Assembly (NCBI GenBank): GCA_964617735.1
Contig: CAZTXT010000001.1
Coordinates: 203,589-267,588 of the forward strand
Length of the DNA stretch: 64,000 bases
Direction of reading: 5' to 3'
Origin: an uncultured Candidatus Saccharibacteria bacterium
GTDB taxonomy: Bacteria; Patescibacteriota; Minisyncoccia; Phycocordibacterales; DSPV01
In this document: piece after piece, positions 2,181 through 32,993 of the stretch
How the letters are laid out: every line of letters starts with the position of its first letter
Numbering within the stretch: the stretch's first letter is position 1
The notes under the pieces: model-generated
Seen by the model: the letters and a program-made list of their open reading frames with translations, nothing else
What the model was told of the DNA's origin: nothing
Database searches by the model: none
Program-made: the position numbers and the translations under genes

Positions 2181-2849
2181 ATGGAAACTAAAGTCTACAA
2201 CCAGGATGGAAAAGAAGTGCGTACGCTCGCATTGCCGGCGGAAGTCTTCGGGGTGAAATGGAACGGCGATTTGGTGCATCAAGTCGTTGTCTCGATGCAA
2301 GCCAACGAGCGCGAGCATGTCGCGCATATCAAAACCCGCGGCCAGGTGGCTGGCGGTGGCAAGAAGCCCTGGCGCCAGAAAGGTACCGGACGCGCTCGCC
2401 ACGGCTCTATCCGCTCGCCTCTGTGGGTTGGCGGCGGTGTCACGCATGGCCCGAACCCGGACAAAGTCTATGGACGCAAAGTGAATCGCAAAATGAAAGC
2501 GAAAGCGCTCTACGCCGTGCTCTCAAAGAAGCTCTCCGATGGCGAAGTGCTTTTTGTGGATTCGCTCGCCGTTTCTTCCGGAAAAACGAAAGATGCGAAA
2601 GCTATGCTCGGCAAGCTCGCGGGCATCAAGGGCTTTGAAAAGCTCACGACCAAGCCCAAGAACGTCGCGCTCATCGCGCTCGCCAAGAAAGACAAACCGA
2701 CCGAGTTGGGCCTGCGCAATTTCGGCAACATCATGGTGGACGAAGCCCGCAACCTCAATCCCGTCAGTATTTTGAGCAACAAATATCTCGTCATCAGCTC
2801 TCCGGAGGCGTCTCTCGAGACTCTCACCGCTAAAACCGCTAAGAAATAA
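2181..2849 (+). CDS. rplD: 50S ribosomal protein L4
   Basis: KKPWRQKGTGRARHGS...GGGVTHGP motif; operon order after rplC. Confidence 0.95.
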   Translation: METKVYNQDGKEVRTLALPAEVFGVKWNGDLVHQVVVSMQANEREHVAHIKTRGQVAGGGKKPWRQKGTGRARHGSIRSPLWVGGGVTHGPNPDKVYGRKVNRKMKAKALYAVLSKKLSDGEVLFVDSLAVSSGKTKDAKAMLGKLAGIKGFEKLTTKPKNVALIALAKKDKPTELGLRNFGNIMVDEARNLNPVSILSNKYLVISSPEASLETLTAKTAKK

Positions 2850-2851
2850 TC

Positions 2852-3250
2852 ATGGCGCTCTTCGGCTTCAAAAAGAATAAGAAAGAGGAGAAGAAAGACA
2901 TCGCAACCAAGTTCGAGAAGCCTGTCGAGGTGAAGCGCGCGGTCGCGGTTTCAAATCCGGACGCGAAAGCGACCGGCGGCTCGGGCGTGCTGAAGAACCT
3001 TCGCGTTACCGAAAAAGTCTCGCTTCTCTCGGCTACCCGCAACGTCTACACCTTCAACATCACCGAGGACGCGAACAAAGAGAGCGTCTCGCAAAGCGTC
3101 GAGCACCTCTATAAAGTGCATCCGGTGAAGGTCCGCATCCTTCCGGTTCCGGCAAAGCGTGTTTTCGTCCGCGGCAAGGCCGGGGTCAAGCGCGGTGGCC
3201 GCAAAGCGTATGTGTATCTTAAGGAAGGGGAGAAAATAGATATTGCATAA
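2852..3250 (+). CDS. rplW: 50S ribosomal protein L23 (N-terminally extended)
   Basis: operon position between L4 and L2; L23-like core (VSEKA.../HPVKVRILP). Confidence 0.88.
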   Translation: MALFGFKKNKKEEKKDIATKFEKPVEVKRAVAVSNPDAKATGGSGVLKNLRVTEKVSLLSATRNVYTFNITEDANKESVSQSVEHLYKVHPVKVRILPVPAKRVFVRGKAGVKRGGRKAYVYLKEGEKIDIA

Positions 3251-3282: not shown

Positions 3283-4137
3283 ATGAAATTCTATAAACCT
3301 ACAACCAAATCACGCCGCCAGTTCACGAACATCATGTATCGCGGCACCCTCACGAAGTCGGAGCCGCACAAAGCACTCACGACCGGATTTCAGCGCGACA
3401 GCGGCCGCAACAACCGTGGTCGCATCACCGTCCGCCACAAGGGGAACGGCAACAAACGCCTCTACCGCGCGATAGATTTCCTCTATGACAAACGCGACAT
3501 GAAGGCTGTGATCGAGTCCGTTGAATACGATCCGAACCGCACGGGTTTCATCGGCCTCGTCATCTACCCCGACGGAGAGCGCCGCTACACCCTTCTTCCG
3601 AAAGGACTCGGCAAAGGCTCTGGCTTTATCGTCTCTGAAAACGCGCCGCTTGTTCCGGGCAACCGTCTTCCCCTCAAGAAAATCCCGGTCGGCACGTTCA
3701 TTTTCAATGTTGAATTGAAACGCGACGGCGGCGCAATACTTGCCCGCTCGGCCGGCAACTACGCTCAGCTCATCGCGCTCGAAGGAGGATTCGCGCACGT
3801 CAAACTTCCGTCCACCGAAGTCCGCAAAGTAGACGAAGATGCATGGGCATCCATCGGCGCGGTCTCGAACGAAGAGAATCACCTCGTAAACCTCGGCAAA
3901 GCCGGACGCTCAAGGTGGCTGGGTATCCGCCCGACGGTGCGTGGCTCGGCTATGAACCCGGTTGACCATCCGTACGGCGGTGGTGAAGGACGCCAGGGAC
4001 GCGGCCGCAGACGCCTCATCACGAAGTGGGGCAAGCCCGTCGGCAAAGGACAGAAGTCCCGCCGCGCGAAGAAATACTCAAATGTTTTCATCGTTTCCCG
4101 GAGAAAGGTTGGAAAATCTCGAAAGACTGCCATTTAA
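3283..4137 (+). CDS. rplB: 50S ribosomal protein L2
   Basis: GRNNRGRITVRHKGNGNKRLYRAIDF and MNPVDHPYGGGEGR motifs. Confidence 0.95.
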   Translation: MKFYKPTTKSRRQFTNIMYRGTLTKSEPHKALTTGFQRDSGRNNRGRITVRHKGNGNKRLYRAIDFLYDKRDMKAVIESVEYDPNRTGFIGLVIYPDGERRYTLLPKGLGKGSGFIVSENAPLVPGNRLPLKKIPVGTFIFNVELKRDGGAILARSAGNYAQLIALEGGFAHVKLPSTEVRKVDEDAWASIGAVSNEENHLVNLGKAGRSRWLGIRPTVRGSAMNPVDHPYGGGEGRQGRGRRRLITKWGKPVGKGQKSRRAKKYSNVFIVSRRKVGKSRKTAI

Positions 4138-4140
4138 TCA

Positions 4141-4168
4141 AAACCGCCCTCTTGGGCGGTTTTTGTTT
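4141..4168 (+). terminator. rho-independent terminator after rplB
   Basis: accgccc-tctt-gggcggt then tttttgttt. Confidence 0.6.
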
Positions 4169-4170
4169 GA

Positions 4171-4701
4171 CATGGACAGCTCAATGGCGGCGGATACCTA
4201 CTTCTTGTTCCCAAAAGTCATACGCCATGCATCGCTCAGCTGCCTCTTCAGGAGCTTGAATTTCTGGAGAACCACATAGGCCGCATCCGTGATGTGTTGC
4301 GGAACGAGTACGACACTGACGACGTTCATGTTTTCGAGCATGGCATTGTCGGGCAGACGGTGAAGCACGCACACCTTCATTTCGTTCCCGTTAAGCATGA
4401 TTGCGACATGGACCAGAGGATACTTAAGGACTTTCCTCAAAGTACTGCAGGGTGGATACCCTCCCTGTATCTCTTGAAAAACACTCGTCAGAGTGCATCC
4501 GAGCCATATCTGATCTGGAAGAATCGCAGTAACGAGTTCAAGGTTTGCTGGGACCCGCCCGCACCTAAGCAATACTTTCGAACGGTCATTGCCGAAGCCA
4601 TCGGCTGTCCCGAGAAAGCCGATTATCGCAACATCGATCCGGAAGAGGATAAGCGTCTCTGTCTTGAAACGGTAGAGCGTCTCAAGCCGCACCTTAGTTG
4701 A
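4171..4701 (+). pseudogene. HIT-family (histidine triad) hydrolase homolog with no start codon for its N-terminal part (possible 5' truncation); ORF-finder calls only 4294..4701 from a GTG
   Basis: frame-1 translation from the stop at 4168 reads GYLLLVPKSHTPCIAQL...GQTVKHAHLHFVPVK (HIT HxHxHxx motif) with no ATG/GTG/TTG before 4294; the expected ~35-aa N-terminal nucleotide-binding strands are absent; long ~100-aa C-terminal extension. Confidence 0.45.
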
Positions 4702-4708
4702 ATATCAA

Positions 4709-4738
4709 AGCCCGCCTCCGCAGCGGGCTTTTTCTTTT
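4709..4738 (+). terminator. rho-independent terminator
   Basis: gcccgc-ctccgca-gcgggc followed by tttttctttt. Confidence 0.55.
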
Positions 4739-4844
4739 CCCAGTAAAGATTGTCTTTCCCGTGGCTTTTTGACATCTCTCTATGTCTTGGTAATGTGTGG
4801 TTAGACAAGGTTCATCATAATCAAAAAAAACAGAAAGGAATGCT

Positions 4845-5312
4845 ATGCAAAACGGAGAACCGAGCATGTACATCGGCCTCTCGACAATGCGCAACGGGCT
4901 CACCCAAATTCAATGGTCGCGTTTGCAGTTGTTCTTCATGTTCAATGCCATTGCTCTACCGTTCGTATTTGCTGCAGGCAAAAACGGAAACGCAATATCG
5001 TTCGCAAACGTCGAGATAACAAAATTACTATTAAGTGTCGTTGGGGTAGTTATCCACGTTGGCTTTTATTTCGGTGCCTTACGTGCAATCAGATGGATTA
5101 GGTACTTGAGCGAGAAACTGGCCGATTTTGAACGACTTGACCGGAAATCAGAGCCTTCACGCACGAGAGTGAAAGTCTTCAGTTACTCCCGATTCAAAGA
5201 GCTTCGCCGAGGTCAGTTTGTAACTTTTGGGCACTTGTGGCCGTTTGGCATTGGTATGGCCTTTTGGCTTGAACAATCTGTCTACCGTCTTCTGCCTTAT
5301 CTACAGAACTGA
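4845..5312 (+). CDS. hypothetical membrane protein (155 aa)
   Basis: RBS aaaggaa 7 nt upstream of ATG; several hydrophobic helices; AT-rich relative to flanks. Confidence 0.6.
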   Translation: MQNGEPSMYIGLSTMRNGLTQIQWSRLQLFFMFNAIALPFVFAAGKNGNAISFANVEITKLLLSVVGVVIHVGFYFGALRAIRWIRYLSEKLADFERLDRKSEPSRTRVKVFSYSRFKELRRGQFVTFGHLWPFGIGMAFWLEQSVYRLLPYLQN

Positions 5313-5332
5313 AATCAAAAACGAAAGGATAT

Positions 5333-5539
5333 ATGACTAAACAAGAGAAAATACAAACAGCCAAAACGAAACAGAATCTTGAGCAAGACGATGAAGATTC
5401 ATGGGAGCCCTACGACTTCGATAGCCCGTTTGAGCGTAAACTTGACATATTCTCCTATGTCTTTGGGGCCGCAGCACTTGCGGTCGCCGTCGCCGGACTT
5501 CTATTTCTGATCGTTCGCCAGTGGATGGGAAAGCTTTAA
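5333..5539 (+). CDS. small membrane protein (68 aa, C-terminal TM)
   Basis: RBS aaaggat; acidic N-terminus followed by AAALAVAVAGLLFLIV transmembrane segment. Confidence 0.5.
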   Translation: MTKQEKIQTAKTKQNLEQDDEDSWEPYDFDSPFERKLDIFSYVFGAAALAVAVAGLLFLIVRQWMGKL

Positions 5540-5567
5540 CGCTCACCCGTTCTGTTTGTTTGATCCA

Positions 5568-5597
5568 AGCGCTCGGCTACTTGCCGGGCGTTTTTTT
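5568..5597 (+). terminator. rho-independent terminator ending the insertion
   Basis: gctcgg-ctacttg-ccgggc (one G-U pair) followed by ttttttt. Confidence 0.5.
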
Positions 5598-5706
5598 ATA
5601 TCTACCTTTGTAAAACACAATAGCTCCCTTTCCCCAGAAAAACGGGCTTTCCCACACCCCTTCCACAGGGTAGGCACAACCTTTTCCCCATTCGCCCAGC
5701 ACCTGT

Positions 5707-5735
5707 TTGACAGAAAATGCCTAGATTGCTAGGAT
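5707..5735 (+). promoter_or_regulatory. sigma70-like promoter for the rpsS operon (TTGACA-17-TAGGAT), followed by a leader hairpin
   Basis: TTGACA at 5707, 17-nt spacer, TAGGAT; then aagctc-gaagg-gagctt with a U-rich tail before the rpsS ATG. Confidence 0.4.
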
Positions 5736-5783
5736 GCAACGACCAAGCTCGAAGGGAGCTTGTTTGTTTTCTGCCGATGTTTT

Positions 5784-6134
5784 ATGAGTAGATCCCTCAA
5801 AAAAGGCCCATATTTGGACCCGAAGCTTATGAAGAAGATTTCGGGCAAGAAGCCGGAGACAACCCCGGTTATTAAGACATGGGCGCGCGACTGCCAGATC
5901 GCACCGGAAATGGTCGGCTTTAAGTTCGGCGTCCATAACGGGAGGGAACATATTGAGACACTAGTCACCGAGGAAATGGTTGGACACCGCCTCGGTGAAT
6001 TTGCGCCTACCCGAAAGTTCACCAAACACGGCGGCAAGATGCAGAAAGAGCTCGAAGCCAAGAAGAAAGAGGGCGAAATAGCCGCAGCGCAGGCCGCGAA
6101 AGCCGCGCCCGCCGCAGGAGCCCCTGCAAAATAA
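5784..6134 (+). CDS. rpsS: 30S ribosomal protein S19 (Ala/Lys-rich C-terminal extension)
   Basis: [15 protein letters not shown]...[13 protein letters not shown]; start at the internal ATG of ORF 5760..6134. Confidence 0.92.
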
Positions 6135-9676: not shown

Positions 9677-9730
9677 TCAGGTGTATAAGCCTCTTTGCGC
9701 CCAAAAGGCGCTATGCTACCATAGAAATCT

Positions 9731-10966
9731 ATGGCAGTTACTCCACAACTCACTCAATATATAAACCAGGCTCGGAAGGCGGGCATGACGGACGAGCAGA
9801 TAAAGGCAGAGCTCTTAAGGGCTGGCTGGAGTGCAACAGATGTTGAGGCGGTTCTTCCGCCGAGCGATCCCGTTCCGCCGATTCCGGCGCTCCAAACCAT
9901 GTTCCAGCAGGCCGCACAGGCTGCTACGGCGATGCCTCAACCGCAGATGCCGGTCAAACGCCGCAGTCATGCGGGCTTTTGGATAACAGTCATCATCCTC
10001 CTCCTCGCCGGCGGAGCGGCTTACTATTTCCTCCCGCAACTCACCACACTCTATGATAAATACTTTGGGGCATCAGAGAGTACGAACCTCTTGCCCTATA
10101 CTCCTCCGGTAACCGATGTGAATTCCGAAAACCCTGCTATTCCGAATCCAACCGAAGCGACTTCAACCGAGGGCTGGAAGACATATACAAACGACAAGTA
10201 TGGGTTTGAGTTTCAGTATCCGGCAGATATGAACATAATTCCTGTGGAGGAGGGCCAAGTTAACTTGGCAAATCAAAAACAGCCACCACCAGTGGCAACG
10301 GAACCACCAAGTCCACTGATGCTGTTCTTTGAGGAGAGTTCAAGTAATTCTTTGGAATGGGCAAGTAAAAGATTGCAAAAGTTTGGTGGCGTACGTGAAG
10401 TTACATACCTCGAAAAGAATCTTCCACTGTTCAAAGGGGTGAATGGTGTTTTAACTTTTGAATTGGTTGATGAAATAACAGAGAAGCCTGGATACGCGTT
10501 TAGTAAAAACGGAGTCAACTATGCCTTTTTGAGCGGGATAAGTGGAAATACCAAGTTGGTTAAAATCCTCTCAACCTTCAAATTTGTTTCCTCGACGACA
10601 TCGGTTACTGACTCTCAAGCTATACAGGAGTTGGTTACCACACAACTCTCTGAACTAAGAGCGGTCACTTCTTTTCAGCAAGCCGAGGCCATTGCTTTAA
10701 AGTATGGCACGAGCGCTTATATTCAAAAGATTAAGTCCCAACAGCAGCAAATAGACTCTCTTCCGGATTCTTTTAAAGAAAGCATGGTGAAGACGTTTGT
10801 AAGCAGCTTACCTAATAGTTCTTTCCAATTCACTTCGGTAAATATTTCAGGGGACGGAGCAACCGCAATAATTTCTGATGGTAAGACCACCGGTACCATC
10901 ACTCTCAAAAAAGAGAGTGGACTATGGAAAATAGACAATGAGGCCTACAAAGAAACGGCCAATTAA
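9731..10966 (+). CDS. membrane-anchored hypothetical protein (411 aa) inside the spc-type operon; N-terminal ~40-aa module shared with gene 28116..28778
   Basis: N-terminus LTQYINQARKAGMTDEQIKAELLRAGWSATDVEAVL then one TM helix (FWITVIILLLAGGAAYYFL); 3' two-thirds markedly AT-richer than 5' third. Confidence 0.65.
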   Translation: MAVTPQLTQYINQARKAGMTDEQIKAELLRAGWSATDVEAVLPPSDPVPPIPALQTMFQQAAQAATAMPQPQMPVKRRSHAGFWITVIILLLAGGAAYYFLPQLTTLYDKYFGASESTNLLPYTPPVTDVNSENPAIPNPTEATSTEGWKTYTNDKYGFEFQYPADMNIIPVEEGQVNLANQKQPPPVATEPPSPLMLFFEESSSNSLEWASKRLQKFGGVREVTYLEKNLPLFKGVNGVLTFELVDEITEKPGYAFSKNGVNYAFLSGISGNTKLVKILSTFKFVSSTTSVTDSQAIQELVTTQLSELRAVTSFQQAEAIALKYGTSAYIQKIKSQQQQIDSLPDSFKESMVKTFVSSLPNSSFQFTSVNISGDGATAIISDGKTTGTITLKKESGLWKIDNEAYKETAN

Positions 10967-11099
10967 TACTTAATGCATGTTCTCGAAGAGTCAGACACTT
11001 AGCTGGTTATAAAACAGCCGAGGTTTATTGGGGAGTAATAGCTGGTTTTGTTTTTTTGCTACAATCTTCAATATGTCGTCTAATCCTCATTTTCTTTTA

Positions 11100-11129
11100 T
11101 TGACACCCCCTCTTCTCCTCTGCTAGTAT
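11100..11129 (+). promoter_or_regulatory. sigma70-like promoter (TTGACA-18-TAGTAT) in the 280-bp gap before rpsZ
   Basis: consensus -35 and near-consensus -10; ~120-nt leader containing a gcgc-taac-gcgc hairpin. Confidence 0.4.
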
Positions 11130-11249
11130 GGCTCTGCGCTAACGCGCTATAGGTAATTGGCACTGTTGGAGTCTCCGCCCCGGTATATACAGATAATGGA
11201 TGAGGCGAGAGATACCCACCGAACCAATTATTTTTATTGTTTTCAAAAA

Positions 11250-11435
11250 ATGGCGAAAACATCCACATACGTACGGTCGCTCAAGAAACCCAAGTACAAA
11301 AGCCGCGTGGTCCGGCGCTGTTTCCGTTGCGGTAGGAAGCGTGGATTTATGCGTGACTTCGGACTCTGCCGCATCTGCTTCCGTGAGTTTGCCAATGAGG
11401 GCATGATACCCGGTATTCGAAAATCGTCATGGTAG
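11250..11435 (+). CDS. rpsZ: 30S ribosomal protein S14, type Z (Zn-ribbon, 61 aa)
   Basis: MAKTSTYVRSLKKPKYKSRVVRRCFRCGRKRGFMRDFGLCRICFRE: CxxC...CxxC short form; start at internal ATG 11250. Confidence 0.85.
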   Translation: MAKTSTYVRSLKKPKYKSRVVRRCFRCGRKRGFMRDFGLCRICFREFANEGMIPGIRKSSW

Positions 11436-29390: not shown

Positions 29391-29579
29391 GTTACGCGGA
29401 TCGGCTACAAGTTTTACCTTGCCGTCGCTCGGTAAACTTGCAGCCCACCCCTCGCGATTTTTTCTGCTGAAAAAATATCGCTGCGGTCTTCGATTCCGCA
29501 CGTGAGCGAAACCCTTCGCTCACTCCACTCCAATTAAGAAAAATCGCCCGCCATGACTGGCGAGCTGATTTTTCAAAAT

Positions 29580-29971
29580 TGGAGATGGGCGGAATCGAAC
29601 CGCCGTGCAAAGGGTGAATTGGGGAAAGTCTACACGATGTAGTCGGTCTTTTGTTTTCGGCGCTCGTACTATAAGAGCGACAGAACATACGAGAGCTTAT
29701 TCTCTATGGTTCGGATGTGAACCGAGAAGGGAGCACGTCCTAGCCCGAAAATATCATGCCCCGCGATGCGATTCAGGCGAGCGCACCGGGAACACGTTTA
29801 CGTATTATGCGTAAACGAAGGCGAGGTCCTTCGCTCCGAAATACGGAGAAACGATGGCCTTTGCCTTTGCAACTGCGTTTTTGGCAGTTATGGTTTCCAG
29901 CAGTTTATGGAGTTACTGGAGCTCCATCGCGCATTCCAAAAGACATTCCTTTGTCTATGCCGTTCATCCCC
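29580..29971 (-). ncRNA. ssrA: tmRNA (ssrA), ~392 nt, CCA not encoded
   Basis: 5' GGGGAUGAACGGCAUAGAC pairs with 3' ...GGCGGUUCGAUUCCGCCCAUCUCCA (T-arm plus acceptor); tag ORF ends at a UAA inside a CGUUUACG/CGUAAACG hairpin loop; directly downstream of smpB; terminator hairpin follows. Confidence 0.8.
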
Positions 29972-32919: not shown

Positions 32920-32993
32920 CCGCCCTTAGCTCAGCTGGTTAGAGCAACGAGCTTATACCTCGTAGGTCCTTGGTTCGAATCCAAGAGGGCGGA
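32920..32993 (+). tRNA. tRNA-Ile (anticodon UAU), no encoded CCA
   Basis: cloverleaf: acceptor CCGCCCT/AGGGCGG, D arm GCTC-AGCTGGTTA-GAGC, anticodon stem ACGAG/CTCGT with loop CTTATAC, T arm CTTGG-TTCGAAT-CCAAG. Confidence 0.85.

Follow-up and report, generated by a model that had tools for sequence, protein, structure and literature searches.

A permissive gene slot between rplB and rpsS in a Patescibacteria ribosomal-protein cluster, holding a 5'-truncated HIT-family remnant and a small membrane-protein unit

In a 64,000-nucleotide stretch of genomic DNA from an uncultured Candidatus Saccharibacteria bacterium (contig CAZTXT010000001.1; hereafter the window), the open reading frame (ORF) list and Pfam place a ribosomal-protein cluster on the plus strand of the first 12 kb. 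Within this cluster the genes for L2 (rplB) and S19 (rpsS) are 1,646 bp apart, and three strong terminators and a 10-of-12 promoter are found between them. We consider it probable (about 0.75) that this region is a spacer between two independently transcribed units, which serves as a permissive gene slot and presently holds the remnant of a HIT-family gene together with an intact unit of two small membrane-protein genes (MP155 and MP68).

The L2 protein of the window is 83% identical to that of a Candidatus Taylorbacteria locus (L001), and its next 79 best matches all belong to Parcubacteria/Paceibacteria-type Patescibacteria. This places the genome among the Parcubacteria/Paceibacteria, as a relative of Candidatus Taylorbacteria. 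Eighty related loci around rplB were collected by L2 match, and rpsS was located in each of them. It was found downstream of rplB in 55 loci, at spacings from 40 to 5,736 bp: 135 bp or less in 12 loci, 136–500 bp in 15, 501–1,500 bp in 19, and more than 1,500 bp in nine (the same method gives 1,650 bp for the window). Thirteen further loci extend at least 3 kb past rplB without rpsS; in some of these rplJ-rplL come next, or the cluster resumes at rpsN. Thus, the junction that an earlier note on this DNA had taken to be usually contiguous is not contiguous in this clade.

The gene content of the spacer is equally diverse. The 161 ORFs of at least 60 amino acids detected downstream of rplB formed 134 clusters, including 117 singletons. 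Pfam scanning of the 46 ORFs located strictly between rplB and rpsS identified three histidine kinases, two AbiEii toxins, one MazF and one HicA, as well as an IS200-type transposase, a reverse transcriptase, TruD, diacylglycerol kinase, patatin, Clp_N and a mechanosensitive-channel protein. Homologs of HIT, MP155 or MP68 were absent at or near the junction in all 80 loci, none of which therefore combines this gene order with a full-length HIT gene, an arrangement that the earlier note had named as one that would point to an ancestral order. The spacers of the two closest relatives (L2 identity 83% and 78%) measure 0.7 and 1.2 kb and are unrelated to the insert, with which neither blastn (word size 7) nor tblastx revealed any similarity. 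The rplB|rpsS spacer is a permissive and highly variable gene slot in this clade, and in these comparisons its content in the window is specific to this lineage.

Alignment of the 110 nt upstream of rpsS revealed a TTGAC(A/T)-16/17-(TG)n-TAnnAT promoter in nearly every locus, at any gap size. About six to ten nucleotides past this promoter comes AAGCTC-loop-GAGCTT followed by TTTTGTTT, and in about 40 loci, with gaps of 84–5,736 bp, rpsS is preceded by the promoter, a GCTC-loop-GAGC hairpin and a T-run. Counting the window, 40 of 81 loci have a strict terminator in the 90 nt that follow rplB. Because terminator, promoter and hairpin are present even in gaps of 84–130 bp, the boundary is older than the cargo, and because nearly every rpsS has its own promoter and hairpin whatever the gap size, the insert did not split an operon. 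These patterns suggest that rplB|rpsS is an ancestral inter-operon boundary in the clade, which the insert would occupy rather than create. The earlier note had correctly located the rplB terminator, the TTGACA-17-TAGGAT promoter of rpsS, the leader hairpin and two more terminators; however, its proposal that an insertion interrupts the operon does not hold, as terminator, promoter and hairpin are features of the clade. In the window, the rplB terminator (−17.2 kcal/mol, z = −3.9) consists of a stem at 4140–4163 followed by TTTTTGTTT. It was missed by the automated terminator scan because maximal stem extension consumes the T-run, whereas a simple separate scan recovers it.

The HIT-family ORF begins abruptly. 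As the earlier note observed, its frame opens at 4171 directly after an in-frame TGA (4168–4170) without a start codon; the first in-frame ATG, GTG or TTG is the GTG at 4294. Between the TAA of rplB and this TGA there are ten start-less codons in the rplB frame, and the 33 nt that separate the rplB stop from the HIT ORF are filled by the terminator. The ORF reads HGQLNGGGYLLLVPKSH...HAHLHFVP, and homology in the window starts at HGQLNGGGYLLLVPK. Alignment with the Pfam HIT family (PF01230), which the earlier note had proposed as a check, was carried out: the ORF scores 24.2 bits (cutoff 21.5) and covers profile positions 27–96 of 98, leaving positions 1–26 unmatched, and it covers positions 36–110 of 114 of DcpS_C; both alignments begin at ORF residues 8–9. 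The histidine triad is present, HAHLHFV being aligned with the invariant H-A-H-x-H of the relatives.

A search of 5.8 billion proteins detected 162 HIT relatives. More than 100 of them are full-length proteins, mostly 200–210 amino acids long and 40–53% identical to the window ORF, and those with a source name are Patescibacteria. The closest known group is thus a Patescibacteria subfamily of about 200 amino acids within the HIT superfamily (HINT/FHIT type; PF01230 and, for DcpS_C, PF11969), whose members share a conserved extension at the C-terminus. We aligned the ORF with 13 relatives, 12 of them full-length (200–230 amino acids). The full-length relatives, at about 202 amino acids, start with MxxDCVFCDRSKFEERLIGE..F.IATLGQI.DGGYVLLVPKRH, and HGQLNGGGYLLLVPKSH of the window aligns to ..LGQI.DGGYVLLVPKRH; homology thus begins at the first codon past the TGA, and the preceding 28–30 residues, including a CxxC motif, have no counterpart. 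The ORF corresponds to residues 31–198 of the full-length relative P0002. Solved HIT structures align to P0002 from residue 3 on, and the missing segment is therefore part of the HIT fold. The earlier note was right that the N-terminus is missing, but it had put the loss at about 35 residues.

Could the truncation be an artefact, with a sequencing frameshift or a misjoin masking a full-length HIT gene? The source of the window is probably a metagenome-assembled genome, in which local errors are possible, and a short ORF in another frame begins at ATG 4172. However, homology continues in a single frame right up to the TGA, so that no frameshift lies inside the retained part; the 33 nt behind rplB are too short for 28–30 codons; and tblastn with full-length relatives recovered only P0002 residues 31–198 and P0007 residues 31–202 at the locus and nothing elsewhere in the 64 kb, in any frame. 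Moreover, a Logan contig assembled separately (run SRR12313479, a different pipeline) is 100% identical over 4,015 nt, from rplD into rpsS. We therefore regard an artefact as very improbable.

Several other ways to restore an intact gene were considered and rejected. A frameshift from ATG 4172 fails because homology stays in frame 1 to the stop and the product of that ATG (MDSSMAAD...) is unlike the N-terminus of the family. Reading UGA as a sense codon is ruled out by the TGA of the remnant itself, which matches the ends of the relatives, and by the fact that only ten start-less codons lie upstream. A circular permutation, in which 5703 is joined to 4173 via a 9-mer repeat, places the TGA inside the repeat and does not restore the N-terminus. 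Separately, another HIT relative, P0088 (147 amino acids, L089 3835–4444), has an overlapping 69-amino acid ORF upstream. This gene may have been split by a frameshift, and may represent a second broken copy of the family or an assembly error.

With no start codon, no promoter, and the CxxC motif and first part of the fold missing, the remnant is most likely an untranslated pseudogene, truncated at its 5' end and inactive. It retains all 15 invariant and all 22 nearly invariant alignment columns, contains no internal stop or frameshift, and has its own TGA at the position where the C-termini of the relatives finish. As decay is not visible, the truncation was probably recent, or else the fragment is still selected. 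Several points weigh against pseudogene status and recent loss. The intact frame and complete set of conserved residues would also be expected of a gene under selection, and it is possible that the rplB terminator is read through or that translation begins at a near-cognate start such as CTG 4264. In addition, the search that found no second HIT copy covered 64 kb of the genome, and the closest relative compared has 83% L2 identity, a distance at which the rearrangement is neither dated nor polarized; either a fragment that had already lost its 5' end was inserted, or the deletion came later.

One alternative is that the HIT ORF works, starting from CUG 4264, GUG 4294 or AUG 4408 and yielding a shortened product which keeps the triad or only the family-specific C-terminal domain. 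In addition to the open 176-codon frame with its conserved residues, the ORF has its own terminator downstream, one gene caller predicts a 97-amino acid product (P0001), and AGGAG at 4250–4254, located 9 nt ahead of the in-frame CTG 4264, is the sole arguable translation signal. We nevertheless find a working gene quite unlikely, given the strong rplB terminator upstream and the promoter scan, which detected no promoter between this terminator and the ORF or anywhere in 4138–4300. GTG 4294 and ATG 4408 have no ribosome-binding site, and CUG starts are very rare in bacteria. All such products would miss at least the first 30 residues, which are part of the fold in solved structures, and the LLLVPK strand is lost in the CTG and GTG products as well. 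The unusual start that the earlier note offered as an alternative to truncation may be used, yet the resulting protein would also lack the beginning of the HIT fold.

The second component of the cargo is the MP155-MP68 unit. As the earlier note had stated, both are membrane-protein genes with a ribosome-binding site: each has AAGGA and encodes hydrophobic helices. The candidate promoter of the unit (TTGACA-16-TAATGT) fails the 4-of-6 rule for its second hexamer. A word-based search with MP155 returned only MP155 itself; an exhaustive HMMER search detected 57 representatives of about 145 amino acids. MP155 scores 18.3 bits against 8xMP, which is below the Pfam cutoff of 30, whereas 17 of 22 aligned sequences (MP155 and 21 relatives) match this family with E-value ≤ 0.01 (best 2.7e-9), and its closest relative, P0122, has a precomputed 8xMP match. 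A literature search on 8xMP returned only unrelated papers. For MP68, no family was identified with Pfam, NCBIfam or PADLOC models. None of the three cargo ORFs has an NCBIfam match, and the PADLOC defense models gave only a weak generic HIT-family match to ThsC for the cargo. The possibility that the cargo forms one block was examined and rejected: HIT relatives occur in non-ribosomal contexts without 8xMP neighbors, and 8xMP relatives occur without HIT.

How the cargo arrived was also considered. It is conceivable, although unlikely, that a 1,540-bp block entered as a mobile element or by integration of circular DNA, leaving TGTTTGACA at both borders and duplicating the −35 region. The two exact 9-mers lie at the edge between terminator and cargo and at the edge between cargo and promoter, respectively. 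In relatives with a short gap, for example L035, TTTGTTTGACT (the −35 element of rpsS) follows directly on the rplB terminator, and the left TGTTTGACA copy therefore resembles the ancestral junction, with the 1,540 bp between the copies looking inserted. In addition, the slots of some relatives carry selfish cargo (an IS200 transposase, a reverse transcriptase and toxin-antitoxin genes). On the other hand, this 1.7 kb contains six exact 9-mer pairs, roughly as many as chance would produce, and three copies of TGTTTGA. No transposase, integrase or recombinase family was detected in the insert by Pfam, NCBIfam or PADLOC, terminal inverted repeats are absent from it, and the cargo pieces are independent and do not occur together elsewhere. 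Because such 9-mer pairs arise at chance frequency, the repeats are only suggestive of a target-site duplication or a microhomology integration at TGTTTGACA.

The earlier note had seen a compositional shift and proposed foreign DNA. The shift is real but small: the G+C content (GC) is 47.9% for the insert (19th percentile within the window), 51.4% for the HIT fragment (35th percentile) and 46.6–46.9% for the membrane-protein genes, against a window mean of 52.0% (standard deviation 4.8). Since the insert lies within one standard deviation, the named HIT relatives are Patescibacteria and no integrase or transposase is present, a foreign origin is not supported. The families represented in the cargo are typical of Patescibacteria. 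Stronger deviations, with GC of 36–44%, are found elsewhere in the window, at about 27.6–28.8, 39.0–40.3 and 48.6–51.4 kb.

Taken together, the layout (table 1) suggests how the region may have arisen and how it may work. The rplC-rplB unit would end at the terminator behind rplB. A rearrangement with its left breakpoint directly after this terminator would have removed the first 28–30 codons and the upstream region of a gene for a Patescibacteria-type HIT hydrolase of about 200 amino acids. Placed behind a strong terminator and lacking a promoter, the remnant is probably silent. The MP155-MP68 unit would be transcribed from its candidate promoter to its own terminator, and the rpsS-rplE unit would start near 5742 at its own strong promoter, so that we infer three separately transcribed units. 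The rpsS hairpin would then lie at the very 5' terminus of its mRNA, like known stabilizing 5' stem-loops.

Table 1. Features of the rplB-rpsS region and of the neighboring ribosomal-protein genes (window coordinates)
Feature	Position	Strand	Remarks
rplC	ORF 1528–2172, likely ATG 1573	+	
rplD	2181–2849	+	
rplW	2852–3250	+	
rplB (L2)	3283–4137, TAA 4135–4137	+	Last gene of unit rplC-rplD-rplW-rplB; Pfam Ribosomal_L2_N E = 5e-28, Ribosomal_L2_C E = 3e-48
Intrinsic terminator of rplB unit, including T-run	4140–4169	+	Perfect 10-bp stem AAAACCGCCC/GGGCGGTTTT, loop TCTT
Left copy of 9-bp direct repeat TGTTTGACA	4164–4172	+	Abuts first HIT-derived codon
5'-truncated HIT-family remnant	4171–4701	+	176 codons open, HAHLHFVP intact, TGA 4699–4701
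Terminator 3' of HIT remnant	4707–4740	+	Stem 4707–4731, −14.8 kcal/mol, z = −4.3
Putative promoter of MP155-MP68 unit	4769–4796	+	TTGACA-16-TAATGT, TG before −10; read by eye
MP155, 155-aa membrane protein	4845–5312	+	Putative divergent member of 8xMP (PF24838), from Pfam matches of relatives
MP68, 68 aa	5333–5539	+	Acidic N-terminal half, one C-terminal hydrophobic helix; no family found
Terminator of MP155-MP68 unit	5567–5603	+	Stem 5567–5593, −19.0 kcal/mol, z = −5.0
Right copy of TGTTTGACA	5704–5712	+	Includes −35 hexamer of rpsS promoter
rpsS promoter	5707–5735	+	TTGACA-17-TAGGAT, TG before −10; conserved across clade
Leader hairpin with U-rich tract	5744–5773 (stem-loop 5744–5762)	+	CAAGCUC-GAAGG-GAGCUUG, then TTTGTTTT
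rpsS (S19)	5784–6134	+	First gene of unit rpsS...rplE; Pfam Ribosomal_S19 E = 2e-32
rplV, rpsC, rplP, rpmC, rpsQ, rplN, rplX, rplE	Following rpsS, to 9676	+	
411-aa ORF in second gap (rplE to rpsN)	9731–10966		
rpsN	11250–11435	+	Followed by rpsH, rplF

The promoter and hairpin ahead of rpsS form a cassette that recurs across the clade. In an alignment of 38 sequences, the GCUC/GAGC core pairs are unchanged in 31–36 of them, and the next outer pair changes from A-U to G-C in four; 78.9% of the cells are paired, versus 15–53% when the partner column is slid. The pattern of promoter plus hairpin occurs 56 times in 878 kb (both strands searched), every time on the strand of the ribosomal genes, mostly at rpsS but also at rplD (nine loci), rpsN (four loci) and a few other genes. 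A covariance model derived from the alignment gave 45 matches with E-value ≤ 0.1 in 814 kb, again all on the ribosomal-gene strand (plus), with a single match in the window (5730–5778). No Rfam family covers 5736–5783, either at gathering thresholds or at E-value ≤ 10, and a literature search on the structure or leaders of ribosomal operons in Patescibacteria (the candidate phyla radiation, CPR) found nothing relevant.

The hairpin starts about 2 nt (estimate 0–3) after the expected transcription start, which lies about 7 nt past the −10 element. It may serve as a 5' mRNA stabilizer, or as an insulator or attenuator that stops read-through from variable upstream cargo. Because the stem is conserved in sequence (36 of 38 loci), beyond what pairing demands, a palindromic DNA operator is equally possible. 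A tentative hypothesis, which we hold at somewhat less than even odds, is that the cassette is an undescribed cis-regulatory element of the Paceibacteria clade that heads rpsS, rplD and rpsN sub-operons, in which it could act in any of these three ways. If this is true, these reduced genomes would be able to divide the S10-spc cluster into modules and to accommodate unrelated genes in between while the balance of ribosomal proteins stays undisturbed.

Additional observations concern the surroundings of this cassette. In the window, a 19-nt inverted repeat (84% complementary) links 5612–5630, upstream of the promoter, with 5752–5770, the 3' arm of the hairpin and the U-tract; only read-through transcripts coming from upstream could form this pairing. 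In one subgroup of loci (for example L007, L014, L017, L022 and L026) the ATG of rpsS lies 8–9 nt past the −10 element (TAGTATAAAAAACCATG), which suggests a leaderless rpsS mRNA instead of a hairpin leader in this subgroup. In nine others (L003, L006, L008, L010, L013, L021, L027, L033 and L066) the cassette stands directly ahead of rplD, so that some members of the clade have a unit boundary at rplC|rplD too.

Other boundaries of the ribosomal cluster were observed as well. Upstream of rplC, where rpsJ directly ends in most relatives (exceptions include L001, L004 and L016), the window has opposite-strand ORFs at 320–988 and 1111–1413 without any Pfam match above cutoff. A similar hairpin with a T-run is present in the rplC leader (1530–1545, GAGCC-ATTTCG-GGCTC TTTTT), which the covariance model does not detect. 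The second gap of the cluster, from rplE to rpsN (9677–11249), contains an ORF of 411 amino acids with only a weak, sub-threshold Pfam match to PsbP_2; in L001, the closest relative, a homolog of its first 37 residues is found downstream of rplE. The spacing between rplE and rpsN ranges from 68 to 2,316 bp in relatives. The rpsN gene of the window has a TTGACA-18-TAGTAT promoter (11100–11129) and a leader of about 114 nt. Many relatives (L035, L036, L044, L051, L066, L067, L071 and L075) have a long conserved hairpin, GATCTGTGTTTCTCCTTAAGG...TTTAAGAAAAnACACAAGATATCACC, some 120 nt ahead of rpsN. This hairpin may be the leader of a ribosomal-protein unit, and the rpsN leader of the window differs from it in sequence. 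Elsewhere, the window contains a transfer-messenger RNA (tmRNA) gene (29577–29971), two tRNA-Met genes and a tRNA-Ile with the anticodon TAT (UAU) at 32920–32993. A tRNA-Ile with this anticodon is uncommon in bacteria.

The finding itself, a gene remnant and a small membrane-protein operon between two transcription units, is ordinary. What is unusual is the place of the slot inside the ribosomal cluster, and the part most worth following is the cassette which recurs across the clade. The S10-spc cluster appears to be modular in this large uncultivated clade, with rplB|rpsS and rplE|rpsN as hypervariable slots. Many phylogenies use 16 ribosomal proteins that are expected together on one contig, an expectation which such slots break, and annotation pipelines may call fragments as genes (e.g., the 97-amino acid P0001). 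The promoter-hairpin cassette also offers a testable entry to how Patescibacteria coordinate the expression of their ribosomal proteins.

In bacterial genomes, no other region is normally as tightly packed or as conserved as the ribosomal-protein cluster. The slot differs from the usual core-gene hotspots of variable genes in lying inside this cluster, and its copy in the window has no integrase, tRNA or attachment site. It is similar to such hotspots in that its flanks are conserved whereas the cargo differs in nearly every species, and in that toxin-antitoxin genes, an IS200 transposase and a reverse transcriptase are among the cargo of some relatives.

The E. coli-type S10 operon (rpsJ-rplC-rplD-rplW-rplB-rpsS-rplV-rpsC-rplP-rpmC-rpsQ) is transcribed as a single mRNA, and L4 controls an attenuator in its leader. 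The gene order of this operon is retained in the window from rplC to rplB and from rpsS to rpmC and rpsQ, and the cluster as a whole follows the order of the S10 and spc operons. However, rplB and rpsS are not adjacent, rpsJ does not come first, and the signals in the DNA point to several units rather than one: a terminator follows rplB, and separate promoters precede rpsS and rpsN. In form, the leader hairpin with its U-tract resembles the S10 leader attenuator. Unlike that leader, a similar hairpin stands ahead of different units (rpsS, rplD or rpsN) depending on the species, and it is therefore not the leader of a single protein. Stabilizing 5' stem-loops and promoter-proximal intrinsic terminators likewise place a hairpin and a U-tract at the start of transcription; unlike these and the attenuators, the hairpin described here has a GCUC/GAGC core that is conserved in its very sequence in 36 of 38 loci.

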